Shown here in pieces: positions 2,886 to 38,499 of a stretch of DNA of 64,000 bases. The notes under the pieces were generated by a model. That model was not told the DNA's origin and ran no database searches. It saw only the letters and a program-made list of their open reading frames with translations. Position numbers and translations under genes: made by a program. The stretch comes from a virus. The stretch is taken from positions 1 through 64,000 of IMG/VR virus record IMGVR_UViG_3300037606_000137. One strand, written 5' to 3'. Position 1 is the first letter of the stretch; each line of letters begins with the position of its first letter.

Positions 2886-3302
2886 ATGGATAAAATAGTA
2901 GATTTTTGGGAATATAAAAATAATAATAATTTATCCATTGATGAATTAATTAGTATAGCTAAAGAATATTTTATTGAAGATTTTATTGAAAATCCTAAAA
3001 AATGGAAAATTAATTTAAATGATATTAATGATATGATGAAAAGTTCAATTAATAAGCATGTTACAAATATTAATGATTGGGTAGATATGAATTTTGATTA
3101 TTTTTGTTCAAATATTATAAAAATTATAGAAGATTGGATTAAAATCAATTCTGATATAGAACCAATTGATATAAAAAACATAACACAAAAATTAATTAAT
3201 GATTATATTAATTTACAATTAAATTTAATGAATAATAAAAAAAATACAATTGTTAATTTAATGGAATCAATAAAAAAAACATATATTGATTTTAGATATT
3301 AA
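2886..3302 (+). CDS. hypothetical protein
   Basis: 138-aa ORF continuing the operon. Confidence 0.6.
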   Translation: MDKIVDFWEYKNNNNLSIDELISIAKEYFIEDFIENPKKWKINLNDINDMMKSSINKHVTNINDWVDMNFDYFCSNIIKIIEDWIKINSDIEPIDIKNITQKLINDYINLQLNLMNNKKNTIVNLMESIKKTYIDFRY

Positions 3303-4204
3303 GTATTAAAAAAATCTGCTTCTTTTTTTCTTCTCGGTATATGTCCTGGATATGATATTGCTGTAGATTTTATTTTATGTTTAGCTTCACTATAATTACC
3401 ACTTTTAACTAATTGTATAAAATCAGTTTTTCTAAAATTACCAATACCCATATTAAAAATCATAGAAATCATAGAATCATACATACCTTGTGTTATATTA
3501 TAATTTATTTTTTTATCTTTCCAATTATCTAATATTTTATCTAAACCCATTTTAGCATCTAAAATATCATACTTTAATAAATTTAATGCCTCTTTATGTG
3601 TTATCGTTGTATGTCCCACTTTCATTTTGGTTTTAGATACTCTTTCAGCATGTCCAAATCCAATTGTTAACATACCGTCACCAATATCATATGCTGTTAA
3701 TACAGGTTCCCCTTTATGTTTTATAGAACCTTCTTCATGTTTTAAAAAATCTATTAAATTATTTGAAAATGTTATTGGTTTTTTAAAAACATCACGTGAA
3801 TTTACAATTTCTGTTCTATTATATGCCAAATTAACAATTTTTACTAATTCTGTTTTATTTAATTCATTCAATGTATTAAATTCATCAATAATAGTAATCA
3901 TTTCATTAAATGATAAAATACTAACAAAACCTAAAACAAAATTTTTAAATAATTTTAATCTGAATTTATATGGTAACGCTTTTATTTTAGATATAATTTT
4001 ATTAATGTATTTAAATATTACATCTTTTCCTAATTTTAATTTTTTAATTAATTCTGAATCTTTTTTAATAACATCTGTTAAATCCCATTCAAATTCATTA
4101 GATATATCAGATTCTAATAATAAATATAATTTATCTATTGCTAACAATGCCTTAAATTTATTTTCATATAAATGATATTCATAATCAACTATCGTTAAAA
4201 TCAT
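3299..4204 (-). CDS. GH24 phage lysozyme with N-terminal extension
   Basis: HEEG...AYDIGDGMLTIGFGH, SMIFNMGIG, RRKKEA motifs. Confidence 0.85.
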   Translation of the reverse strand: MILTIVDYEYHLYENKFKALLAIDKLYLLLESDISNEFEWDLTDVIKKDSELIKKLKLGKDVIFKYINKIISKIKALPYKFRLKLFKNFVLGFVSILSFNEMITIIDEFNTLNELNKTELVKIVNLAYNRTEIVNSRDVFKKPITFSNNLIDFLKHEEGSIKHKGEPVLTAYDIGDGMLTIGFGHAERVSKTKMKVGHTTITHKEALNLLKYDILDAKMGLDKILDNWKDKKINYNITQGMYDSMISMIFNMGIGNFRKTDFIQLVKSGNYSEAKHKIKSTAISYPGHIPRRKKEADFFNT

Positions 4205-14006: not shown

Positions 14007-14040
14007 AAACCTCTCTATTTTAGAATAGAGAGGTTTTTTT
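14007..14040 (+). terminator. intrinsic terminator
   Basis: aaaacctctctatt-ttag-aatagagaggttttttt. Confidence 0.85.
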
Positions 14041-25992: not shown

Positions 25993-26029
25993 ATAACAAT
26001 TATATTAGTAATATTTAATATATAGAAAT

Positions 26030-27298
26030 ATGATAACAACTATTAATGAATTTAAAGTTTATTTTATAAATGAAGCAAGTTTTGACCAACTTCAAAATCA
26101 ATTCGTTAATACAAACAAAATCACTGATAAAATTTTTGATGAAATTAAATTAAATATAAATAAATCAGCATATGCTACATGGTTAATAACTAAAATATTA
26201 AATAAAATTATTTTATCAGAAGATATTTATAAATATAAAGATTATTTTTTATTATTTGATAGATATAAAAGAGAATATAAGTACCAAGACATTAATAAGT
26301 ATAAAACGAAACAAGATTTAAAAGAATTTATAGAAAAATCTGTTGAAATAAAAAACAGAGAATCTGAAGATGTATCTAGTATTAAAGGTATTTCAAAGAA
26401 TGAAAAATACAAACAATTTGAAATAGGTGTTGTTGATGGTTTTACTGTTTATGAATTACCAAAAGATAATTTAAATAATTATAATGTGAGTTGCGAATTA
26501 GGTTCAGGTACTGAATGGTGTACATCAACAGGTAATACAAATACATATTATGATAATTATATTAAGAAAGATTCACTTTTTATTTTTATTAAAGGTAATG
26601 AAAAATATCAATTTCATTACGAATCTGAATCATTCATGGATAAAAATGATAATAGTATGATTAAAAATGATAAATTAAATGTCAATTTATTATTTAATTT
26701 ATTTGAATTTATAAACAATAAATATCCAAAATATATAATACCATTCAAAATTAAAGCTAAAGCTAATAAATTAATCAATGATGATTATATAAATGCAACA
26801 GAAAAAGAATGGGATGAAATTTCACGGTACCAAAAAATATCTGAAGAATTTATTAAAAAACATAAAGATAAATTGAATTGGTATAATATATCAATGTATC
26901 AAAAATTATCTGAATCTTTTATAACAGAATTTAAAGATTTAGTTCATTGGACTAATATATCGATCTATCAAAATTTATCAGAATCGTTTATTAGAAAATA
27001 TAAAGATTTAGTTTCTTGGACTCATATATCACAATATCAAAAATTATCAGAAGAATTCATTAGTGAACATAAAAAAATAATTAATTGGTATAATATATTA
27101 GAGTATCAAAATTTATCTGAATCATTTATTATTAAACATAAAGATAAAGCTGTTTGGTATCTTATTTCAGCATATCAAAATATATCTTATGAATTCATTA
27201 ATAAATTTAAAAATAAATTAACTGTTAAGTATTTATTAGATAATAAACATTTATCAGATGAATTAAAAGAAAAAATTAAAAAAATATATAATTTATGA
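26030..27298 (+). CDS. Trp-repeat protein with MITT tag and SCELGSGTEWCT domain
   Basis: About six 22-aa W..IS.YQ.LSE.FI repeats; paralog of 29200-30327. Confidence 0.8.
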   Translation: MITTINEFKVYFINEASFDQLQNQFVNTNKITDKIFDEIKLNINKSAYATWLITKILNKIILSEDIYKYKDYFLLFDRYKREYKYQDINKYKTKQDLKEFIEKSVEIKNRESEDVSSIKGISKNEKYKQFEIGVVDGFTVYELPKDNLNNYNVSCELGSGTEWCTSTGNTNTYYDNYIKKDSLFIFIKGNEKYQFHYESESFMDKNDNSMIKNDKLNVNLLFNLFEFINNKYPKYIIPFKIKAKANKLINDDYINATEKEWDEISRYQKISEEFIKKHKDKLNWYNISMYQKLSESFITEFKDLVHWTNISIYQNLSESFIRKYKDLVSWTHISQYQKLSEEFISEHKKIINWYNILEYQNLSESFIIKHKDKAVWYLISAYQNISYEFINKFKNKLTVKYLLDNKHLSDELKEKIKKIYNL

Positions 27299-27744
27299 TA
27301 ACAACTATAAATGAATTTAAAAATTCAATAAATGAAGATTATAAAAATTTTGATATAGAAATTAAATTTCTAGATGAAATTGATGATAATATTATTGAAA
27401 CATTATTATCTAGTTTTGGAGATTATAATCAAACAGAAAAAACATTATATATTTGGGAAACAACAGATCCTGACATGGATAATGTTTATATTATTTTAGA
27501 TGATAATTTTACAGAAGACCAATATATATTAACTACTAATGAAGAATCTGATATAACTAATGAAGGAAGAGGTTTTACATTAAAAGAAATTAAGTTTAAA
27601 GCAATTGATACACTTAAAAACTTTGGTATAAAAGTACCAACAGTAGAAGAAGTAGATGGTATGGTTACAATATTTAAAACCTATATTAATAAACATAATT
27701 TAGGTGTTATTATGGAATCCACAAAAAATGATGAATTGGTTTAA
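27295..27744 (+). CDS. MITT-tag protein
   Basis: MITTINEFKNSINE. Confidence 0.65.
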   Translation: MITTINEFKNSINEDYKNFDIEIKFLDEIDDNIIETLLSSFGDYNQTEKTLYIWETTDPDMDNVYIILDDNFTEDQYILTTNEESDITNEGRGFTLKEIKFKAIDTLKNFGIKVPTVEEVDGMVTIFKTYINKHNLGVIMESTKNDELV

Positions 27745-27983
27745 TAAATAACCAACTCATCATTTTTTATAGCTTTACGAATGTATCTCATAAGCGTTAT
27801 TGCTTTAATACAAGCAGGAAATGTAGTTGTACCAACATCTTCTTTATCATTCATATTCACAGGAAATGAATACTTTGCTGTTTCTGTTTTTACTTCATAA
27901 TAAATTACTCCAGCAATTACATGACTAATAGTAGCAAAATTGTTATTCATAACAATATGCTTGATTGTGTTTGTGTTTTCCAT
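27741..27983 (-). CDS. hypothetical phage protein
   Basis: FPV...DVG..TF....KAITLMRYIRKA. Confidence 0.65.
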   Translation of the reverse strand: MENTNTIKHIVMNNNFATISHVIAGVIYYEVKTETAKYSFPVNMNDKEDVGTTTFPACIKAITLMRYIRKAIKNDELVIY

Positions 27984-28090
27984 AACTAATTAAATTGTAT
28001 TTTTTTTTTTATATAATTAGTTGTTAATGTACAGTACTCGAACCTGTTGTGCTACCGATTAGCCATTACATATAAATACAATATTGTTTG

Positions 28091-28163
28091 TGATCCCGGT
28101 GTGGCTCGAACACACGACTCTTCCGTTAAAAGCGGAATACTCTACCAACTGAGTTACGAAATC
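28091..28163 (-). tRNA. tRNA-Lys(UUU)
   Basis: Acceptor GATTTCG/CGGGATC, anticodon arm TTCCG-CTTTTAA-CGGAA, TTCGAGC T-loop. Confidence 0.92.
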
Positions 28164-28176
28164 ATTTAAAATTTTG

Positions 28177-28248
28177 TCACCCCGGTTGGTACTAATCCAA
28201 CGTCCTACTGATTAAAAGTCAGTGACTCCATCATTGAGCTACAAGGTG
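28177..28248 (-). tRNA. tRNA-Lys(UUU) with atypical T-loop
   Basis: CACCTTG/CGGGGTG, ACTGA-CTTTTAA-TCAGT, T-arm GTTGG-ATTAGTA-CCAAC. Confidence 0.75.
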
Positions 28249-28508
28249 TTATTATTTTATTCAACACCTTGAAAATTCATCAATGATGTTGTTATTACTG
28301 TTTATATTGTTTTATTGTTTTCATTTTATATTGTTTTATTTTTTACCCTCACAGTTGGATTCGAACCATTTTTTTCTATCTAACCAATTAGAAAGTATAC
28401 ACTAATTGGTTTGCCGCTCGGATATTCATTACTTTTAACAAAATGTTAAAAGTGTCACTATTTTAATTTTCTTCCTTTCTTCCAACCTTGATCTAGAAAA
28501 TGTCTGCG

Positions 28509-28594
28509 GGTGTTAGACGGGAATTGAACCCGCATGTTCTTACGAACACCTATTTCACAGATAGGCTGGACAAACGAATATTCCACTCTAACAC
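28509..28594 (-). tRNA. tRNA-His(GUG) with long variable arm and no encoded G-1
   Basis: GTGTTAG/CTAACAC with C73; CCTAT-CTGTGAA-ATAGG; variable hairpin TGTTC-GTAA-GAACA. Confidence 0.85.
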
Positions 28595-28596
28595 AG

Positions 28597-28669
28597 CGGA
28601 CCCAGACAGATTCGAACTGTCGACACTCCGGTCTTCAACCGGATGCTCTACCAACTGAGCTATGGGTCC
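28597..28669 (-). tRNA. tRNA-Phe(GAA)
   Basis: GGACCCA/TGGGTCC, TCCGG-TTGAAGA-CCGGA, canonical D and T arms. Confidence 0.93.
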
Positions 28670-28732
28670 ATATGTTCGAAGTATACTTATTTATACTTTC
28701 GTGCTTTACGGCACATTTACGAACTAGTTTTG

Positions 28733-28817
28733 CTATTACGGTAGGATTCGAACCTACGATGTGATTTCTCAACCAGATTAACAGTCTGGAGCGTTCGGCC
28801 TCTACGCAAACGTAATA
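28733..28817 (-). tRNA. tRNA-Asn(GUU) with long variable arm
   Basis: TATTACG/CGTAATA with G73; CCAGA-CTGTTAA-TCTGG; variable TGA-GAAA-TCA. Confidence 0.87.
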
Positions 28818-28848
28818 ATGTAAAGTTATTTTTAAATAACCTCTTTAG

Positions 28849-28921
28849 TACCCCCCATCAGATTCGAACTGACATCGTACGATTTTTGGAAATCGACATA
28901 ATACCTTTATACCAAAGGGGT
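28849..28921 (-). tRNA. tRNA-Trp(CCA)-like, apparent 8-nt anticodon loop
   Basis: ACCCCTT/GGGGGGT, CGAT-TTCCAAAA-ATCG, GTCAG-TTCGAAT-CTGAT. Confidence 0.65.
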
Positions 28922-28931
28922 GTGTATGTAT

Positions 28932-28967
28932 AAAAAAAAACCCTAAACTTTTCAGCTCAGGGTTTTT
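28932..28967 (-). terminator. attenuator terminator directly upstream of the tRNA operon
   Basis: Minus strand CCCTGAGCT-GAAA-AGTTTAGGG followed by T9. Confidence 0.9.
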
Positions 28968-29002
28968 ATAATATTTATATTAAATTTAAATCTTTAACAA
29001 AA

Positions 29003-29080
29003 TTATATAATTTCTTCTGAGCCACTGGTGATATTCCAGAACTTAAAATTAAAATTATTATGTTTGTTAAAATTTTTCAT
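29003..29080 (-). promoter_or_regulatory. leader peptide uORF MKNFNKHNNFNFKFWNITSGSEEII of a tRNA-operon attenuator
   Basis: Codons 2-16 are only K/N/F/H/W; contains GGCTCAG (29023-29017) complementary to CTGAGCT (28960-28954) in the terminator. Confidence 0.85.
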
Positions 29081-29199
29081 TATTTCTTGTTGTATTAATT
29101 ATACACATAAAGTGTATTTTTGTTTAATTATATATTAAAGTTTTATTCTCTCTTTTTAATCTTTTACAAATATATATATAATAATTTAAATATAGAAAT

Positions 29200-30327
29200 T
29201 TATTTATATATATATTTAATTTTTTCTTTTAATTCATCTGATAAATTTTTATTAACTAATAATTCGGTTAGAATTAATTTATCTTTATTTTCAATTATAA
29301 AAGATTCTGATAATTTTTGATATTTTGATATATAAGTCCAATAAACTAAATCTTTAAATTCTCTCATAAAATCTTCCGATAACTTTTGATATACTGATAT
29401 ACTATACCAATTAAATAAATCTTTAAATTCTCTCATAAACGATTCTGATAAATTTTGATATACTGATATACTATACCAATTAATTAAATCTTTATATTCT
29501 CTCATAAATTCTTCTGATAATTTTTGAAACTGTGATATATCATTCCAATTATTTTGTGATGTATTTTTATAATCTTTATCAGTTAATTTATTTGCTTTAG
29601 CTTTAATTATAAATGGTATTTTATATTTTTTATATTTATTTTCTATAAATTCAAATAAATTAAATATTAAATTTACGTCTAATTTATTATCTTCAAAAAT
29701 ATCATTATCGTTTTTATCCATAAATGAGTCAGATTCGTAATGAAATTGATATTTTTCATTACCTTTAATAAAAATGAATAAATTATCATCTTGAATATAA
29801 TCATTAAAATAATTGGTTGTTTTACCTGTTGCTGTACACCATTCTGTTCCAGAACCTAATTCACAACTAACATTATAATTATTTAAATTATCTTTTGGTA
29901 ATTCATAAACAGTAAAACCATCAACTATACCTATTTCAAATTGTTTATATTTTTCATTTTTTGAAATACCTTTAATACTAGATACATCTTCAGATTCTCT
30001 GTTTTTTATTTCAACAGATTTTTCTATAAATTCTTTTAAATCTTGTTTCGTTTTATATTGATTTATATCTTGAAATTTATATTCTTTTTTATATCTATCA
30101 AACAATAAAAAATAATTATTGTATTTATAAATATCTTCACTTAATATTAAATTATTTAAAAGTTTAGTTATCAGCCATGTAGCATAAGCAGATTTATTTA
30201 TATTTAATTTAATTTCATCAAAAATTTCATCAGTAATTTTGTTTGTATCAACGAATTGTGTTTTAAGTTGATCAAAACTTGCTTCATTTATACTATAAAC
30301 TTTAAATTCATTAATACTCGTTATCAT
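29200..30327 (-). CDS. Trp-repeat protein with MITT tag, inverted paralog of 26030-27298
   Basis: Near-identical first ~250 aa; about four Trp repeats. Confidence 0.8.
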   Translation of the reverse strand: MITSINEFKVYSINEASFDQLKTQFVDTNKITDEIFDEIKLNINKSAYATWLITKLLNNLILSEDIYKYNNYFLLFDRYKKEYKFQDINQYKTKQDLKEFIEKSVEIKNRESEDVSSIKGISKNEKYKQFEIGIVDGFTVYELPKDNLNNYNVSCELGSGTEWCTATGKTTNYFNDYIQDDNLFIFIKGNEKYQFHYESDSFMDKNDNDIFEDNKLDVNLIFNLFEFIENKYKKYKIPFIIKAKANKLTDKDYKNTSQNNWNDISQFQKLSEEFMREYKDLINWYSISVYQNLSESFMREFKDLFNWYSISVYQKLSEDFMREFKDLVYWTYISKYQKLSESFIIENKDKLILTELLVNKNLSDELKEKIKYIYK

Positions 30328-30337
30328 AAATTATATA

Positions 30338-31189
30338 TTATTTCTTTTTATATGCTCTAACATAATCAACAATATGTTTAGTTGGATATATTGCATTTTC
30401 TGGACCTTGTTCAGTATGAATTGCATTATTAATTATAATATGCATTGGATATTTAAATGCTTTTAAAGCTATTGGGTTTGAAAATATTCTAACTAATATA
30501 TTATCATAATAAATTTTAAAATATTTATCTGTCCATTCACAAGCATATGTATGAAAATCTTCTGATACTGAATGAACAAAATGATTTCCAACTTTAAATT
30601 TATGTTTATTTTTTTTATTTTTCCAATGGAAATTACTATCAAATCTTCTTAATCCATGTTTAGATCCAGTATAAATTTCATAAACATCTATTTCTGGTGG
30701 CCAATCAAATGTTGAAGCTAACCAAAATGCTGGCCAACCGCCTGGTTGATCTGAAATTTTACTTCTAATTTCAAAATAACCATATTGTTGTTTAAATATA
30801 TTTGAATTGTCTATTTGTCCTACTTGATATGGTATTGTCCATTCACCATGATTAACACCATTCCAATCAACATGTTCAATAGTTTTAGGAACATTTATAG
30901 CTAATTGAACTAATTTATTATCTTCAATTAGATTAAGATCATCAGCATAATATGAAACAGGTGCATTTCCGTTAGTAATAGAACCGTAATGATAACGATA
31001 ACCATAATATGCATCTGTTCTCCATTTACTTCTATCTAATTCAACACCATTAAATTCATCATTAAAAGTTAAATCCCAATTTTCTTTATCAATACAATTA
31101 ATAACATTGTAATTCTTTTTTAATTTAATTTTAAAATATAAATTAATTCTTAAATATAAATTAATTATAAAATCTTTAATTCTCCACAT
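30338..31189 (-). CDS. glycoside hydrolase family 16
   Basis: DEFNG, YGYFEIR, WPAFWL, EIDVYE, FHTYACEW, VDYVRAY. Confidence 0.9.
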   Translation of the reverse strand: MWRIKDFIINLYLRINLYFKIKLKKNYNVINCIDKENWDLTFNDEFNGVELDRSKWRTDAYYGYRYHYGSITNGNAPVSYYADDLNLIEDNKLVQLAINVPKTIEHVDWNGVNHGEWTIPYQVGQIDNSNIFKQQYGYFEIRSKISDQPGGWPAFWLASTFDWPPEIDVYEIYTGSKHGLRRFDSNFHWKNKKNKHKFKVGNHFVHSVSEDFHTYACEWTDKYFKIYYDNILVRIFSNPIALKAFKYPMHIIINNAIHTEQGPENAIYPTKHIVDYVRAYKKK

Positions 31190-31207
31190 ATAAATATATA
31201 TATATAT

Positions 31208-31783
31208 TTATTTTAAATCAAATGTATAATTTTGTTTAATAGTATTAGATGGAACATAAAATTTATACGTATAACTATGCGGTCTAATTACCCAATTAGC
31301 GTATTTTTCAGGTATCATATTGCTATATTTAATTAAATATGCTTTAGTTAAAAGACTATCTTCAACAATTTCAACATTTGTTGCATCTAATTTATTTTGT
31401 TTATATGTATTTGTTCCAGTTTTAATATAGTAATAATAATAACTTTCACTTTCAACTGTTCCAGTACCTAAAAAAAAACTACCGCTATTAGAAAAATTAT
31501 CATTAATAGATTTTAATTCAATTGTTTTAACTTTTTTTGTAATTAAACTATTTGTATCTTTATAATAGCATACTATTGCCATATTTAATAATATACAAAC
31601 AAATATAAATAAACTAATAATAGTTAAATAATGTATTTCTTTTTTTAATAATTTATAAAAAAATAACCAAATTATAGAAGGAATTAAAACACTTATTAAA
31701 TATAACATACTTTTACTTTTATTTTTTATTAATAAAAAAAAAAACTGATAATTAATTATCAGTTTTTTTTTTTTTAAGTGCAC
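31208..31783 (-). CDS. membrane protein (true start likely MLYLIS)
   Basis: Two TM helices then GSFFLGTG...YYYY. Confidence 0.6.
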   Translation of the reverse strand: MHLKKKKLIINYQFFFLLIKNKSKSMLYLISVLIPSIIWLFFYKLLKKEIHYLTIISLFIFVCILLNMAIVCYYKDTNSLITKKVKTIELKSINDNFSNSGSFFLGTGTVESESYYYYYIKTGTNTYKQNKLDATNVEIVEDSLLTKAYLIKYSNMIPEKYANWVIRPHSYTYKFYVPSNTIKQNYTFDLK

Positions 31784-31816
31784 CTATATATCAAGTACAT
31801 AAAGGCACTATTTTTG

Positions 31817-31889
31817 TAGCGGATGTTTGACTCGAACAAACGATCTTTGGATTATGAGCCCAACGAGATACCAACTTCTCCAACCCACA
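31817..31889 (-). tRNA. tRNA-Met(CAU), initiator-like
   Basis: 1:72 mismatch; TTGGG-CTCATAA-TCCAA. Confidence 0.85.
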
Positions 31890-32019
31890 GAATAAAATTT
31901 AGCAATTCCTCACTATACTTTATTAAATTTCCTACACTATAGGATTATTTTATAATTTTAATTATATATTAAAATTTATTTACTCTGTTTTAATATAATT
32001 ACTAATATTTTTATTCTTC

Positions 32020-32735
32020 TTAGTTTAAAGCCCTTGCACCACTTCACGGTGAGAATAAATCACAAGGGTACATCGTTTTAGCACTGTTATCCGATTAAAT
32101 ACATGATCGTTTTCACGTCAGTTACACGATTACCGTTCAGCAATCTTCATGTATTTTGCCTGTAATTCATTGTCTGGAATCACACAGTAGTTATGTACAA
32201 TATTCTAATCTTTCACACAACAAGTTTGCAGCTCTTGTATTACTCAACTGTAAAACATTTACATCTTGGGATATAAACACTTTACCATTTTTGATGTCAA
32301 TTCAAAGTTTTAATTTGAATGATAGGCACTTCTATTGCACATAGTCAATTTTTAATTCAAACCGAAGTTCAAATTTTTCCAAGCCAAAAGAAGACATAAT
32401 ATCTTTTTTTTTCTGTAGATCTAAGGATTTTTGCTTCCCTAGGATAAAATTACAAATCCCTAAATTATTAAAATAACTACAACAAAATTAGCGATTTTGT
32501 CTCTACATTTTAATCACTGGATATATTTAATGGTCGCTAAACCCCTTTGTCTATCCACACTTTTCTGTATAACTCCTCACCCGAAAAAAGGTTACTGTTT
32601 CATCTCACGACGATCCGCATTATAACGTGTTTTTGTATATCAACTATTTAAAAATAATTGTTGTAATTTAGCCTTCTAACTACAATTTTAATTCCGTACG
32701 ACATCGGAAATATTTTAAAAAATCAAAGAACGTTT
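32020..32735 (-). ncRNA. candidate large structured ncRNA
   Basis: ~700 nt without a credible ORF, visibly GC-richer, many hairpins, inside a tRNA island, with AATATATA at 32763-32770 upstream. Confidence 0.5.
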
Positions 32736-32913
32736 TCTTTATGTTTTCACATTTATAATAGTTATATATTATTAATGTAAAAAAGTTTAATTTAATTTAA
32801 AAATAATTTTCAATTCTAAAATAATATAAGAGTTAAACTTATATTCCACAGTACGCAGCCTGTGTTCCTAACCAATTAGAAGAATTATCTTAGAATTGAA
32901 AATTATTTTTTAG

Positions 32914-32997
32914 TAGAAAAGAATGGAATCGAACCATTGTCTTGTCCAAGGATTCTCGAGATCGGATGGACTGCTCTAACCACTGAGCTACATTTCT
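32914..32997 (-). ncRNA. tRNA-like RNA with elongated anticodon arm
   Basis: Canonical D and T arms; GTCCA-TCC-GAT-CTCGAGA-ATC-CT-TGGAC. Confidence 0.65.
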
Positions 32998-33206
32998 ATA
33001 ATATTTTTCCTTGTATTTGTGCACAAACACAAGGCGAAAGTGTTTCGTAATAGACATAAACATCGATCAAATGTTTATTACTTAATTACTTCATATTATC
33101 ATTATACTAATACATATTGAACTTTGTCCTTTGGGTATTCCCAAGTGCTCCACCAATTGAGCTTATGTAATCAAACATATAATAAAATTGTTTGTTCTTT
33201 CCTTTT

Positions 33207-34076
33207 TTATTCTTTCTTATTCATTTTTCTACCCTTAATCCACCCAACATTTATAAATGATTGTAATTCTTTTATTGTAATTTTTTTATTTATATCGTCT
33301 TTAGTAATCCAACAAGTTCCAAATGATGCATTCTTAATACCTGCATTTTTACTTTTTTTCATTTTTTGTTTAGTTTCTTCTGAATGTTTTTTACCTGTCC
33401 AATTATGAACCAATTCACCTGATAAATATCTAGGATCATTAATAGAAACATTAAATGTATTACCATCTTTATCTTTAACTGTTATTGTATTTTTTAATAC
33501 GTGTATTAATACACCTGATAAATATCTAGGATCATTAATAGAAACACTAAATGTATTTCCTTTAGAATCTTTAACTGGTATGAAATTTTTTGCAATTCCA
33601 TTTAATTCACCTGATAAATATTTAGGATCATCACAGAATACACTAAATGTTTTACCATCTTTATCTTTAACTGTTGTCATTCCTTTTGTGTTATGAACTA
33701 ATTCACCTGATAAATATCTTGGATCGTCACAAAAAACACTAAATGTTTTACCATATTTATTTTTAACTGTAACCATTCCTAGTTTACCAGCATAACCACC
33801 AAAATTAATATTCATACAATATTTATCTTCGAGTATTTCTCTCGTTAATAAATCAATTTCAGCTTGAATTAAATCTTCTCTATTGTCAAATTGTTCTATA
33901 ATTTCTCGTTTGAAATTATCTTTACCATATCTATGTATGGAATTTCGTAAATATTTTCCTGATCCTAAATATGAATCATTTAAATTATTAGTTGAATGTA
34001 TACCATAATAATACTTTCCATTTATCAAATTTGTAGTTTTATACAAATAATGATATTTTTTATCTATGTTTCTCAT
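33207..34076 (-). CDS. Seg-like GIY-YIG homing endonuclease within the tRNA island
   Basis: YLYKTTN...YYGIH...YLGSG; four ~31-aa repeats V.DKDG.TFSV..DDPRYLSG; NUMOD3-like KHSEETKQKM. Confidence 0.85.
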   Translation of the reverse strand: MRNIDKKYHYLYKTTNLINGKYYYGIHSTNNLNDSYLGSGKYLRNSIHRYGKDNFKREIIEQFDNREDLIQAEIDLLTREILEDKYCMNINFGGYAGKLGMVTVKNKYGKTFSVFCDDPRYLSGELVHNTKGMTTVKDKDGKTFSVFCDDPKYLSGELNGIAKNFIPVKDSKGNTFSVSINDPRYLSGVLIHVLKNTITVKDKDGNTFNVSINDPRYLSGELVHNWTGKKHSEETKQKMKKSKNAGIKNASFGTCWITKDDINKKITIKELQSFINVGWIKGRKMNKKE

Positions 34077-34115
34077 AACTTATATATTAAAATATAAATC
34101 ACTAAAACACATCAG

Positions 34116-34186
34116 TAGTGTATACTGGATTTGAACCAATGGCCTCCGGACTTAACCGACGCTCTCCCAGACTGAGCTAATACACA
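34116..34186 (-). ncRNA. tRNA-like RNA with shortened anticodon arm
   Basis: Good D and T arms; TCGG-TTAAGT-CCGG. Confidence 0.6.
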
Positions 34187-34517
34187 TACAGATCAGATAT
34201 TAGGACCTGCAACTATTATCCAGTTTGTTTTTGGTCTGGTATAACCAACTCTAACAGTCTATTTTTACATAGACAACTTTTGCAAAAGTTCACTAACATG
34301 TTGCAACATGTTAATTAACACTCGAAGTTTCTTTTAGATAGACTTATGGTCTATGAAACCAGTAATGTTTGTAAAACCTAGAGATTCGAACTCTTAACTT
34401 AGTTTCAAGTTTCATTCCTGTAAGGAAACTACTAATATCATCTTGTGCCCAATACACTATATTTTATCTCTGTCTTCGAAAACAGAATACGTTAAGATTA
34501 ATTAATTCTTAACTTTG

Positions 34518-34650
34518 TGGTTTTAATTGGAATCGAACCAATATAATAAACTACATATTAAATCACTTTAGTTTATAACTAGTATTATTCACTTAGTAAT
34601 ATTTAATCTTCGTTTAGCCAATATCGTTATTATAAAATAACTATAAAACC
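34518..34650 (-). ncRNA. tRNA-like acceptor/T-arm enclosing a ~100-nt insert
   Basis: GGTTTTA/TAAAACC-A acceptor and ATTGG-TTCGATT-CCAAT T-arm. Confidence 0.5.
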
Positions 34651-34673
34651 GTAACTTTTAATTTTTAAACAAC

Positions 34674-34891
34674 CTCTTTTGATTGTTAAACAAATATAAG
34701 AATAATATTTTAATAATAAAAATAAATCTTAATTTTTTTTGTACTATTTTATTTGTTGCGAGGAAAGGAATCGAACCTCCAAAAATCGCTACTCTAACCC
34801 AATTGAGCTACCTCGCTATAATATTTTCAATCTCTTTTGATTGTTAAACAAATATAAGAATAATATTTTAATAATAAAAATAAATCTTAAT
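34674..34891. repeat. 60-bp exact direct repeat (34674-34733, 34832-34891) containing a TATATTTG promoter box
   Basis: ctcttttgattgttaaacaaatataagaataatattttaataataaaaataaatcttaat occurs twice. Confidence 0.9.
34756..34817 (-). ncRNA. tRNA-like RNA with no anticodon arm
   Basis: GCGAGG/CCTCGC acceptor, GCTC..GAGT D-arm, 10-nt linker, GGAGG-TTCGATT-CCTTT. Confidence 0.65.
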
Positions 34892-35153
34892 ATTTTTTTT
34901 AACAATCACCATTACAATAACCTCTTGATTCACAATCAGGACAATAAATTTCACAAATAAAAAGTACACCTGATTGTATTTTACGACCAGCAGACATACT
35001 AGATCTATCATTCATAAATGCAGTTCTTAAATATGTTGCATCTTTTGCAATTCGTTTCATTTTACGTTTTAAAGAACGTTGTTGTTTTTAATAATTTTAT
35101 TTTCTCTAGTCATGTATTATAAATATAAAATTTGTTTACTAAAAATGCCGCGG

Positions 35154-35225
35154 TGGTCCTGGTTGGACTCAAACCAACACTCTTTGCATTATGAGTGCAC
35201 TGCTTCATCTTTAAGCTACAGGACC
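35154..35225 (-). tRNA. tRNA(CAU), Ile2 or elongator Met
   Basis: GGTCCTG/CAGGACC-A; TGCA-CTCATAA-TGCA. Confidence 0.85.
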
Positions 35226-35284
35226 GATTATATTTTGTTTTCTTGAATACAAGTATAGGTATAATATTTGAATAAAAAAAATAA

Positions 35285-35647
35285 TTACATATTTTTTATT
35301 TTTATTTTTAATTCATCATTAATATCATTATTAATATATGAATGAATCGGTATATCATATATATGAATTGTTTCATTAGGTGGAATTAAAATGCCTGTTG
35401 TACTTGCCCACCATATTTTTGTAGGTGATAATATTTCTAATGCCGGTTGTTGATGTTCTTTATTTTGATTTAATTTATTTTTTATTATAGATAATGCTTC
35501 ATCTGATATTTTTAAATCATTTTTATTAAAATCTGTTAACATTGATCCAATGCCTATTGATTTTAATTTTGGTGTATTAATTAATTTAATAATTAACCAA
35601 TTATTATATTCTTTAATCTCTACTGTATGTGTATCTGCTGTTTTCAT
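35285..35647 (-). CDS. hypothetical protein
   Basis: 120-aa ORF. Confidence 0.55.
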   Translation of the reverse strand: MKTADTHTVEIKEYNNWLIIKLINTPKLKSIGIGSMLTDFNKNDLKISDEALSIIKNKLNQNKEHQQPALEILSPTKIWWASTTGILIPPNETIHIYDIPIHSYINNDINDELKIKIKNM

Positions 35648-35706
35648 ATAAAAAAATTCCTACCAATTATATTGGTAGGAATTTAATAAGTTTAGTATAG
35701 TATAAA

Positions 35707-36258
35707 TTATTTTTTATAATTTGTCAATCGTTTTGATCGAACATCTTGAATTTTACAATGATTTAATTTTGCATATTGTGAACGTACATTATCACGAGTT
35801 AATATCTCATTATAAATATGTACCTCATTATTTCCATCTTTATGAAAAACAACCCAATCTCCATCTAAACTAAAATGATTTTTAGCATGTGTATCAGTAT
35901 AATAAATATTTGTTGGTTCTTTAGAATCAACAACTGAAACCGGAACCAAAACCGGAACAATTACAGTATCATCATCATCATCATCAGAACTATCGTCTAA
36001 TTTTGATGCATAACCACCAACATTTAATTCGTGACTTACTGTCCAAGAATATACAAAATGATTTGTTTTTGAATTATCTCTAACATAATTAGTCGTTTCA
36101 GTAAATAATATTTCCATTATTTCACTTACTTTACTTTGTTCAGCAAAGTACCCTAAATTACGTAATTCGTTTTTCACTTCTAATGTCGTTGTTGTACCAT
36201 TAGTGTGAATTAATAAATCAAGCATCGTACAAACTGATGTATCAGTTAATTTTATCAT
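35707..36258 (-). CDS. hypothetical protein, C-domain paralogous to 42911-43186
   Basis: WVVF...Y...LTRD.VRS...VRSKR. Confidence 0.65.
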   Translation of the reverse strand: MIKLTDTSVCTMLDLLIHTNGTTTTLEVKNELRNLGYFAEQSKVSEIMEILFTETTNYVRDNSKTNHFVYSWTVSHELNVGGYASKLDDSSDDDDDDTVIVPVLVPVSVVDSKEPTNIYYTDTHAKNHFSLDGDWVVFHKDGNNEVHIYNEILTRDNVRSQYAKLNHCKIQDVRSKRLTNYKK

Positions 36259-36366
36259 AATATTTTTTTATATTTAATTATAACAAGTATATAAATAATA
36301 TTTGATTTAAAAAAATCTATATACTTTTTTTTAATATATAATAAAGAATAAAAAAATTATTATATT

Positions 36367-38499
36367 ATGTATAATTTAGAAAAAAAAATTAAATCAATTT
36401 TTGAAGCACCAATAGCATTTGATGAATTACCACAAAACCATTATTTAGCAGGTAAAGATCTAACAATAGTGATTAAAAGATTAATAGATAAAGATGTTAA
36501 TAGTATTAAAGATATGTTATCTAAAATGTCATGGAAAAATATATCATTTGAGTACAGTGGAGAAGTATATATTATTATATTACCTACTGCTATTACTACA
36601 GCAATAAAAAAATTATATAATGGAAAATCTCCTGGTAGTACTGATCCAATTGCTATTAAAAATGATTATAAATTTAAAGAAACAGCTAAAAATATAACAA
36701 TTGATACTTTTACTATTCAAAATTATTGGTTTAAAAATAGTGGTTTAACTTCAGCGAATACATATATGAAAATTGATAATCAACAAAGAACACATTTTCC
36801 AAATGGTGGTATTAGTGAAAAATTAAGAAATACAGGTTTAGGTAAAAAATTATACCGTGCATTAATTGAAATGAAAAATTGGGTGCATACAAATGATGGT
36901 GGATCAACATCAAAAGATTGGATGTGGGCAGCTTTAACAATGCAACAGTTTAAACCTAATGGACAAAGAGATAAAGATGCTGAAATATATTCTTTCAGAT
37001 TTTACAATAAATTATATGCAGTATCTACAACTAGAACTGATAATATTGAAAGTGGTCATTTTATAATAAATAAAATAGAAGATAAAAGTTTATTAGCAAC
37101 TAAAGAATTACGTCTTGCAAATAATATAGGTATTGATGAAGATTTTATTAAATTATGTAAAGCAAATAAAGCAACAAATACTAAAGCTGCTGAGGTTTTT
37201 GGATGGTTAAATCCATCACCAGCATCTATAAAATTAAGAAAAAAACTAGAAGCTGAAAGATTAAAAGCTGAAGAATTACGTAAAAAAGAAGAAGAAAAAC
37301 AATTAAATATTCAATTAAAAAATAGATTGAAAACGTATTGTGGTGTTACAAAAATATCAGATTTATCATCTGATTGGAATGTTGGTGATTGGATTGTTGT
37401 TAAACAATATTTATTACAACCAACTTTTTCTGATTTACCTGTACGTAAAGTTATTAGAAAAAACGGTGATACTTTTAATGCAATATTACCTGACTATCCT
37501 GATGATACAACTAATTTTAGAAGTACAATTATTAAAGATGAATGGGTTAAAGCATTACCACCAGCTATTGGATCATTTTATCCACCAGGAATTATGAACA
37601 CTGCTGTATCTGCAATACGTAGACCTGTTGTATTTGCTTTTACTGGATCTGAACCAACAACTACAACACAAGAACCAACTACAACACAAGAACCAACTAC
37701 AAATCAGATACAAGCGGAATTTAATATTGATGCTAGTAAAACAAACATTTTAGAATTTACACCAAGAGAAAAAAAACGTTTTTTAAATTCTAAATTATCA
37801 AATGATTTAATATTTATACCAAAATTTAACTCAATATCAAATATATATAAAATTGATAGTGCTCCTATATTTGGATATGCGTTTGGTGGTAGTTTATATT
37901 ATAATACCAAAACAATGGAAGGTATTTTGAATAGTAGTAATGTTACTAATTATATTAATAACCAATGTAATAAATATAGAAGAGTTGAATTAGATGATAA
38001 GCGTGATTTGAATGTTGATGATTTAGTATTTATTAAAATGCACTCAAAATTCTTTGGATATGTTGCTAGAGTATTAGGTACATCATTAACATCGAGAGGT
38101 GATAAATATATTTATTTACGTGTTCCAGGTGCTGGAAGAAATGATAGATTGACATTAACACCAAGAGGTTTAGATAGGTTGGTTGCAGTTACAAATGAAT
38201 CAAACAAAACGCCTAATTTTGATAAATATTTACAAATGATTAAAGAATCTAAGATTGTTACTGAAAGTAATTTAAATGCAAAACAACTTATTATTGATTA
38301 TTGTGAAGAATTAATTAGTGTTGATTTAGTTCCTATTGATATAGCTGAAACAATATCAAATGAATTAGAAAACTTTAAAAATGATAAAGATAATAATTTA
38401 AAAAATATATTACAAGAATTACATGGTGCAGATTTATTACCAACCGATACAAATGGTGGTATTAGTGAACCAGATGATATAATAAATTTATTTCTATAA
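36367..38499 (+). CDS. large multidomain protein with a GNAT-like acetyl-CoA motif
   Basis: SEKLRNTGLGKKLY (R-x-x-G-x-G); EPTTT linker. Confidence 0.55.
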   Translation: MYNLEKKIKSIFEAPIAFDELPQNHYLAGKDLTIVIKRLIDKDVNSIKDMLSKMSWKNISFEYSGEVYIIILPTAITTAIKKLYNGKSPGSTDPIAIKNDYKFKETAKNITIDTFTIQNYWFKNSGLTSANTYMKIDNQQRTHFPNGGISEKLRNTGLGKKLYRALIEMKNWVHTNDGGSTSKDWMWAALTMQQFKPNGQRDKDAEIYSFRFYNKLYAVSTTRTDNIESGHFIINKIEDKSLLATKELRLANNIGIDEDFIKLCKANKATNTKAAEVFGWLNPSPASIKLRKKLEAERLKAEELRKKEEEKQLNIQLKNRLKTYCGVTKISDLSSDWNVGDWIVVKQYLLQPTFSDLPVRKVIRKNGDTFNAILPDYPDDTTNFRSTIIKDEWVKALPPAIGSFYPPGIMNTAVSAIRRPVVFAFTGSEPTTTTQEPTTTQEPTTNQIQAEFNIDASKTNILEFTPREKKRFLNSKLSNDLIFIPKFNSISNIYKIDSAPIFGYAFGGSLYYNTKTMEGILNSSNVTNYINNQCNKYRRVELDDKRDLNVDDLVFIKMHSKFFGYVARVLGTSLTSRGDKYIYLRVPGAGRNDRLTLTPRGLDRLVAVTNESNKTPNFDKYLQMIKESKIVTESNLNAKQLIIDYCEELISVDLVPIDIAETISNELENFKNDKDNNLKNILQELHGADLLPTDTNGGISEPDDIINLFL

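Follow-up and report, generated by a model that had tools for sequence, protein, structure and literature searches.

Among the systems described so far, those closest to the element considered here are the multivalent leaders of enterobacterial amino-acid operons such as ilvGMEDA (Ile/Leu/Val) and thr (Thr/Ile), together with trpL, hisL, pheL, and leuL, in which regulatory codons are clustered within a short leader open reading frame (ORF). Ribosome stalling at cognate codons also controls a component of the decoding machinery itself, as in the pheST attenuator of E. coli with its pheM leader, and in the T-box leaders of Gram-positive aminoacyl-tRNA synthetase and amino-acid genes the charging of transfer RNA (tRNA) chooses between terminator and antiterminator. 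Here, we analyze a unit on the minus strand of a phage genome, IMG/VR record IMGVR_UViG_3300037606_000137, in which a leader ORF and an intrinsic terminator precede six tRNA genes (29174-28090, hereafter U1). The window, that is, the whole stretch of DNA that was analyzed, comprises the first 64 kb of the 110,380-bp record. Based on its sequence and on the comparisons reported below, we consider it likely that U1 is a trp/his-type ribosome-mediated (leader-peptide) transcription attenuator that acts on tRNA genes and controls passage from the promoters at 29174 and 29137 into the six-tRNA array.

U1 resembles leaders of the ilvGMEDA and thr type in its predicted, mutually exclusive antiterminator and terminator hairpins, in a stop codon close to the antiterminator strand, and in the putative sensing of several amino acids by one leader. 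Unlike in the attenuators of amino-acid operons, however, the regulated genes would be six tRNA genes rather than genes for biosynthetic enzymes, and the codons in the leader represent up to five (in other units ten) metabolically unrelated amino acids, a set given by the tRNAs encoded downstream. Moreover, U1 is phage-borne, belongs to an expression context of the Bacteroidota type that lacks Shine-Dalgarno sequences, and has no sequence similarity to the Rfam leader families. Whereas the pheST attenuator responds to one amino acid and serves a protein-coding operon, the product here is the tRNA itself, which would make the feedback loop direct; and whereas T-box leaders bind uncharged tRNA directly, without translation and via one specifier codon, U1 contains an ORF. 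What is new relative to the described attenuators is, thus, that the regulated genes are tRNA genes, and full-text literature searches returned no description of leader-peptide attenuation controlling such genes. Descriptions of how tRNA genes are controlled in phages are scarce, and the genes are commonly regarded as constitutive supplements for codon usage. If our reading is true, phages gauge decoding speed codon by codon and replenish only those tRNAs that are scarce, and ribosome-mediated attenuation, a textbook device of amino-acid operons, has been turned to the control of RNA genes.

Leader, terminator, and tRNA genes of U1

An earlier reading of the window made from the letters alone (the sequence-only reading) had described two promoter-like boxes, a short ORF ending in TAA, and a strong terminator ahead of the tRNA genes. 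All of these are present, and the terminator was found independently by a terminator scan (see the table). We refer to the ORF codons that match the downstream tRNA set as the roster. In U1, the roster occupies codons 2–16, and the claim that these codons specify only the five amino acids of the tRNA operon was confirmed: the block consists of six Asn, four Phe, three Lys, one His, and one Trp codon, all of which can be read by the anticodons encoded downstream (UUU, GUU, GAA, GUG, and CCA). Together these five amino acids account for 27% of the residues in the phage proteome, compared with 15 of the 24 counted in the leader (binomial P 2.7e-4), and a run of 15 has a probability of ~3e-8 given the composition of the proteome. 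In the six frames of the entire genome no longer run of these amino acids exists. Because the next-longest run, within a real GH16-like gene, has 14 codons, AT-richness inflates such runs, though not to 15.

The leader ATG is preceded by an A-rich stretch and lacks a Shine-Dalgarno sequence; the latter is not an argument against translation of the leader because translation in Bacteroidota hosts does without such sequences (PMC9723704). With a 5' untranslated region of ~47–82 nucleotides (nt), the U1 leader is not leaderless. A 13-codon mini-ORF in another frame (29067-29108, minus strand) overlaps the start of the leader ORF.

Downstream of the roster, the distal part of the ORF contains the sequence GGCTCAG (segment 2), which had been proposed to pair with CTGAGCT (segment 3) in the 5' arm of the terminator. 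This pairing was borne out as a helix of 7 bp, including one G-U pair, with a duplex energy of −11.3 kcal/mol, and the complementarity exceeds that in 98.6% of dinucleotide shuffles of the leader (P 0.013–0.014). When the transcript is cut at 28950, that is, before the 3' arm of the terminator, the antiterminator helix is present in the predicted minimum-energy fold. The leader also folds by itself into a long imperfect hairpin in which the roster block is predicted to pair with the distal ORF, so that part of the antiterminator strand would be sequestered as long as the roster is free of ribosomes. The leader stop codon lies 12 nt past the antiterminator strand, and a ribosome at the stop would cover this strand only in part. 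The terminator ends 10–15 nt ahead of the first tRNA gene.

Searches with ARAGORN and Rfam located all six tRNAs named in the sequence-only reading (Trp, Asn, Phe, His, Lys, and Lys), although the calls for Trp, His, and one Lys are subject to the qualifications given in the table and discussed below. In the weakly scoring tRNA-His, the anticodon loop with GUG is clear, and the acceptor, anticodon, and T arms can be read directly from the sequence. Between tRNA-His and the first tRNA-Lys there is a degenerate tRNA-like piece (28340-28430, minus strand), which was called by neither ARAGORN nor Rfam; its end resembles a T arm, and an 8-bp hairpin stands where the anticodon arm would be expected. 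In addition, an 8-nt segment at 28270-28263 (minus strand) is the exact complement of the region of the 5' acceptor strand (28250-28243) of the tRNA-Lys starting at 28248, 12 nt downstream, and a 9-codon ORF lies just ahead of this segment.

Features of U1 (window positions) and of the units with the same layout (positions as given for each record or locus)
Feature	Position	Strand	Evidence or content
-7 box of host type (TAnnTTTG, Bacteroidota sigma-A), TATATTTG	29167..29174	-	predicted transcript start ~29162
Second promoter-like box, AATATATA	29136-29129	-	lies within TAATATATA, 29137-29129
Leader ORF, 25 codons + TAA	29003..29080	-	sequence reading; downstream of both promoter motifs
Roster block, codons 2-16	29033..29077	-	exclusively Lys, Asn, Phe, His, Trp
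Long imperfect leader hairpin, segments 1:2, apex CUGG/CCAG 29039-29025	28989..29076	-	leader alone, -16.9 kcal/mol
Antiterminator 5' strand, segment 2, GGCTCAG, ORF codons 20-22	29017..29023	-	10 nt past roster block
Segment 3, CTGAGCT, part of terminator 5' arm	28954..28960	-	partner of segment 2
Intrinsic terminator, 14-bp hairpin, GAAA loop, 9-T run	28932..28967 (hairpin 28967-28936)	-	terminator scan; fold -17.9 kcal/mol
tRNA, CCA anticodon (Trp-like)	28848..28921	-	ARAGORN and Rfam, 36.4 bits
tRNA-Asn (GUU), long variable arm	28732..28817	-	ARAGORN and Rfam, 44.6 bits
tRNA-Phe (GAA)	28596..28669	-	ARAGORN and Rfam, 70.3 bits
tRNA-His (GUG), long variable arm	28508..28593	-	ARAGORN; Rfam weak, 23.9 bits
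tRNA-Lys (UUU), first copy	28177..28248	-	Rfam, 47.7 bits, and low-threshold ARAGORN only
tRNA-Lys (UUU), second copy	28090..28163	-	ARAGORN and Rfam, 62.1 bits
Unit U2, same genome	record 64754-64986	+	ORF 64812-64904 (30 codons), terminator 64941-64970, tRNA-Glu from 64986
Unit U3, same genome	record 65737-66565	+	ORF 65737-65826 (29 codons), terminator 65854-65881, tRNA-Tyr(GUA) 65891-66565
Cellulophaga phi4:1 unit A (NC_021788)	ORF start record 87065		11 consecutive codons only Gln/Arg/Leu/His/Glu/Pro
Cellulophaga phi4:1 unit B	ORF inside annotated gp075		23/26 codons from tRNA set behind (Ala to Tyr)
Cellulophaga phi10:1 (NC_021802)	ORF start locus 2706		10-codon block, exactly Trp/Ser/Tyr/Cys/Phe
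Tenacibaculum Gundel_1 unit 1 (NC_062747)	ORF start locus 3222		10-codon block Tyr/Ser/Cys/Phe/Trp, homologous to phi10:1 block
Tenacibaculum Gundel_1 unit 2	ORF start locus 3872		12/22 codons from Pro/Gln/Met/Asn/Leu; tRNAs Pro, Gln, Met, Asn, Leu
Metagenomic relative L043			35-codon ORF rich in Asn/Ile/Thr/His/Lys/Cys; antiterminator match 8-9 bp, P 0.0005

Units with the same layout and a swap test

Two more units composed of leader ORF, terminator, and tRNA genes, U2 and U3, lie just past the end of the window, and three of the nine strong intrinsic terminators listed in the genome are located 20 nt or less upstream of a tRNA gene. In U2, both promoter motifs of U1 are present, and the 5' leader can be aligned with that of U1; the terminator lies 15 nt ahead of tRNA-Glu, which is followed by Pro, a doubtful Gln, Asp, and Asp. 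The distal part of the U2 ORF contains a six-base segment complementary to the terminator arm (P 0.03), and the match of codons to tRNAs is weak and only local, residing in a nine-codon patch with two Asp, two Glu, and one Pro codon in addition to two Tyr and two Arg codons. U3 directly follows the Asp tRNAs of U2. Here, Tyr codons occupy four of five positions (P ~0.004–0.007), the terminator arm has its complement in a segment that extends across the stop codon (P 0.0015 or less), and the gene behind the terminator encodes tRNA-Tyr(GUA). In the latter gene, an insert (intron) of 594 nt follows the anticodon arm and contains an ORF for an HNH-type endonuclease; a TAATATATA motif precedes this ORF. 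Within the U2 array, a small hairpin with a T-run is found directly ahead of tRNA-Pro at record ~65100-65139 (plus strand), preceded by a 12-codon ORF, and may constitute a further internal stop.

For comparison with other genomes we used three cultured Bacteroidota phages with matching tRNAs. In Cellulophaga phage phi4:1, the seven tRNAs past the terminator of unit A are Pro, Glu, Gln, His, Leu, Leu, and Arg, and unit B is preceded by a repeat of the promoter of unit A. The annotated gene gp075 of this phage corresponds to the unit B leader ORF, extended in the annotation by too early a start, whereas gp076 (NC_021788.1, record 90117-90218), which can be aligned by eye to tRNA-Ser from phi10:1, is almost certainly a gene for tRNA-Ser(UGA). 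Downstream of the leader of Cellulophaga phage phi10:1 there are exactly five tRNAs, Tyr, Trp, Phe, Ser, and Cys, of which Trp, Ser, and Cys are unannotated and were recovered by low-threshold ARAGORN; the unannotated tRNAs lie within locus 2930-3001 and 3084-3245. Unit 1 of Tenacibaculum phage Gundel_1 contains tRNA-Trp (low-threshold ARAGORN), Phe, Ser, and Ser as well as two poorly scoring tRNA-like genes whose loops are ambiguous to ARAGORN and were interpreted by eye to be GUA (Tyr) and GCA (Cys); its unannotated or "undetermined" tRNAs lie within locus 3346-3489 and 3667-3740. In both Gundel_1 and phi10:1, the identities of the unannotated tRNAs are those predicted by the leader peptides. 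If our reading is true, leaders can be used to predict which amino acids unusual phage tRNAs serve, for example the CCA tRNA of U1 with its 8-nt loop and the unassigned tRNAs of Gundel_1.

U1 and the cultured-phage units have a common geometry: counted from the start of the ORF, the roster ends at nt 42–48, the antiterminator strand lies at nt 49–65, the stop codon at nt 61–78, and the terminator arm begins at nt 89–114. Of the five cultured-phage units, four show significant complementarity between the segment past the roster and the terminator arm, phi4:1 unit B being the exception (P 0.73); with U1, U2, and U3 included, seven of eight units do so. The complementarity is also significant in the metagenomic relative L043, in which a neighboring GH16 gene is 53% identical; in this contig the leader and terminator are followed by tRNA-Asn and then by a tRNA-Lys that is cut by the contig end. 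In three of the cultured-phage units, the ATG is located 4 nt past a TAnnTTTG box, and in phi10:1 it is located at the same distance past a near-match; these leaders are, therefore, essentially on leaderless messenger RNAs (mRNAs). By contrast, two unrelated jumbo-phage tRNA regions with a GC (guanine plus cytosine) content of 34–36% (L014 and L015) have no such leaders, which we read as reflecting a different lineage and not as counter-evidence.

To quantify the correspondence between leaders and tRNA sets, we carried out a swap test in which eight leader peptides were scored against eight tRNA sets, using z-scores relative to the pooled composition of the leaders. Seven of the eight leaders ranked their own tRNA set first, and U2 ranked its own set second. 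None of the 40,320 permutations surpassed the total of the true assignment of leaders to tRNA sets, the sole tie being the exchange of two identical sets, and this result did not change when the tRNA sets were drawn as widely as possible. With U1 left out, the true assignment was again the best, in this case of 5,040. The correspondence between leader codons and tRNAs that the sequence-only reading had expected in homologous arrangements is, thus, found in two more units of the same genome, in five units of cultured phages, and in one metagenomic relative; to the extent that sequence can tell, its proposal of trp/his-type attenuation logic draws support from the layout, the alternative pairing, the recurrence, and the swap test.

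The simplest competing explanation is that the U1 leader is a chance ORF in an AT-rich spacer, the transcript being a small noncoding RNA or a short early transcript and the tRNAs being made by constitutive leak-through. A genome of 22% GC makes runs of Lys, Asn, and Phe and open frames of 25 codons easy to obtain, as the 14-codon run in the GH16-like gene illustrates; in addition, the leader folds well as RNA (z −4.95), and the U2 leader has no overall enrichment. The loci of the cultured phages, however, have GC contents of 30–47%, and their rosters are not AT-rich and still match their own tRNAs, which rules out base composition as a general explanation. Given also that the true pairing is the best of all permutations and that complementarity to the terminator arm recurs as described above, we regard a chance ORF as quite unlikely.

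Promoters, the proposed switch, and its alternatives

The upstream promoter-like box of U1 conforms to the -7 box consensus of the Bacteroidota sigma-A factor, TAnnTTTG, which is positioned at −12 to −5 (PMC9723704), and the same 8-mer, TATATTTG, is found 20–40 nt upstream of many gene starts in this phage. The second box is part of the motif TAATATATA, which has 36 copies in the genome, for example, at 14040(+), 26016(+), 30340(-), and 34089(-). Many of these copies lie 4–6 nt before an ATG, often directly after terminators, and the motif also occurs in U2 and before tRNA-Met at 31889. From this distribution, TAATATATA is probably a phage-specific promoter (middle or late) that gives rise to near-leaderless mRNAs. 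A scan for sigma-70 promoters was uninformative (68 sites versus 79 expected). In line with the sequence-only reading, for which an independent promoter between the terminator and the tRNAs would have been a difficulty, a motif search detected neither TAnnTTTG nor TAATATATA between the terminator and the first tRNA (28921). In the same genome, tRNA-Met at 31889 and a tRNA-like RNA at 34817 each have their own promoter directly in front and lack both a leader ORF and a terminator. An extra TAnnTTTG match at 28998-29005 (minus strand) overlaps the stop codon of the leader ORF; a transcript starting there would still reach the terminator.

The pairing of a host-type promoter with a probably phage-specific one in U1 and U2 suggests temporal control, and terminators also stand directly before the next gene elsewhere, for instance at 35684-35654 ahead of the ORF at 35647. 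Both observations would fit a factor-dependent or timed antitermination, in which a phage antiterminator or a modified polymerase overrides the terminators and the small ORFs are early mini-genes. This explanation is unlikely in our view because it accounts neither for leader codons that list the downstream tRNAs nor for the complementarity in cis just past the roster in every unit.

In the attenuator model that we favor, RNA polymerase would synthesize the leader while a ribosome behind it translates the ORF. We infer leader translation, stalling, kinetic competition between hairpins, and regulated read-through as follows. With rapid decoding of the Lys, Asn, Phe, His, and Trp codons, the ribosome would reach the stop codon and mask the antiterminator strand, so that the terminator hairpin forms and transcription ends 15 nt short of the first tRNA gene. 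If no ribosome is present, the roster block would pair with the distal ORF, the terminator would form, and the outcome would be the same. If, however, at least one of the five tRNAs is in short supply in its charged form, the ribosome would stall within the 15-codon roster and leave the antiterminator strand free; this strand could then capture the 5' arm of the terminator before the 3' arm is made, and the polymerase would enter the tRNA genes. Because the tRNAs produced are the tRNAs sensed, such a circuit would amount to negative feedback, a homeostat of decoding capacity.

Several observations weigh against this model. First, the GC content of 22% favors Lys, Asn, and Phe codons to the extent that the 14-codon run arises in an ordinary gene, and His and Trp are represented in the U1 roster by a single codon each. 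Second, the Trp-like tRNA has an abnormal anticodon loop of 8 nt, which ARAGORN reads as "ccaa," and tRNA-His scores poorly on the general tRNA model. Third, the U2 leader as a whole is not enriched for codons of its tRNA set (5/29, P 0.6), and its ORF has three Arg codons for which no matching tRNA was found. Fourth, the comparison units were picked by eye and not blind, and the downstream limits of some tRNA sets, notably that of phi4:1 unit B, are a matter of the analyst's judgement; the tRNA-Ser gene at gp076 widens the latter set. Fifth, no close relative with the same array was found, so that U1 itself has no covariation evidence. Finally, masking of ribosome footprints in the fold, as suggested in the sequence-only reading, never removes the terminator. 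The antiterminator appears in the transcript that ends before the 3' arm, but in the full transcript at equilibrium the terminator wins under every masked footprint, with the antiterminator conformer ~6 kcal/mol worse. Because the terminator always wins at equilibrium, the switch, if real, must be kinetic. The trp attenuator of E. coli is likewise a kinetic switch.

The sign of the response is not fixed by sequence alone, and the thermodynamic dominance of the terminator would also be compatible with the opposite logic, in which efficient translation of the leader promotes read-through, as a positive feedback or translation check, and stalling leads to termination. The inverse arrangement is disfavored, however, because the stop codon lies 26–36 nt before the 5' arm of the terminator, which leaves the hairpin beyond the reach of a ribosome that terminates there; instead the stop lies on or beside the antiterminator strand, where a terminating ribosome would mask it at least partly, as in the classical trp/his geometry. 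We, therefore, consider the opposite logic very unlikely.

Control of a terminator by tRNA status is reminiscent of T-box leaders, and the leader triplets might pair with anticodons directly, without translation. Searches of 26000-37000 with the Rfam leader families (His, Trp, Thr, Leu, and Phe) and the T-box family RF00230 gave no match (E up to 1), and no known leader, riboswitch, or small RNA family was identified by Rfam for U1 (26000-37000) or U2; the score of U2 against Phe_leader was 27 bits, below the cut-off of 55. Moreover, in all units the roster is enclosed in an open frame that runs from a start to a stop codon, and T-boxes read one tRNA via one specifier codon, not 10–15. T-boxes are not known to be typical of Bacteroidota. 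Direct sensing of this kind is, thus, extremely improbable.

Compatible with the attenuator model, and considerably more tentative, is the possibility that the leaders serve as multiplexed detectors of tRNA failure, each tRNA block being a counter-defence module that is induced through a roster of its own. Depletion of any of the listed tRNAs by the host, by a defence system (anticodon nucleases or tRNA-degrading effectors), or by phage-induced shut-off would then stall the ribosome and cause replacement tRNAs to be made. The link to host anticodon nucleases, which the sequence-only reading had also drawn, is speculation. Because the layout is also present in cultured phages of Cellulophaga and Tenacibaculum, the attenuator model is open to bench testing.

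The phage, its host, and the surroundings of the array

The record, the completeness of which is estimated at 28%, has a GC content of ~22%. Given matches in PHROGs to a large terminase, a tail sheath, topoisomerase II, and nicotinamide phosphoribosyltransferase, the sequence is assigned to a phage of the jumbo myovirus type. The host is most likely a member of the Bacteroidota, and probably flavobacterial, because the promoter box is of the TAnnTTTG type and the nearest database matches of the tRNAs include Cellulophaga and Tenacibaculum phages. Signs of leader-peptide attenuation at amino-acid operons have been described in Flavobacteria (PMC9723704). DNA of the phage was contained in two sequencing runs, both of them salt-lake metagenomes, the second of which has no contig across the leader; among RNA sequencing runs, none was listed as containing the phage.

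Viral contigs searched for the exact terminator sequence of U1 gave no match, and relatives sought via the flanking proteins, the sheath, and other neighbors were represented only by fragments, none of them with tRNAs. The pattern of the 5' leader common to U1 and U2 gave 23 matches, all attributable to chance and none beside tRNAs. The U1 array is flanked by two repeat-rich ORFs (26030-27298, plus strand, and 29200-30327, minus strand) that are paralogues of each other. The nearest relative, L001, has one copy of this flanking paralogue and lacks the whole tRNA island (~27.3-35.2 kb), indicating that the island is a variable insertion.

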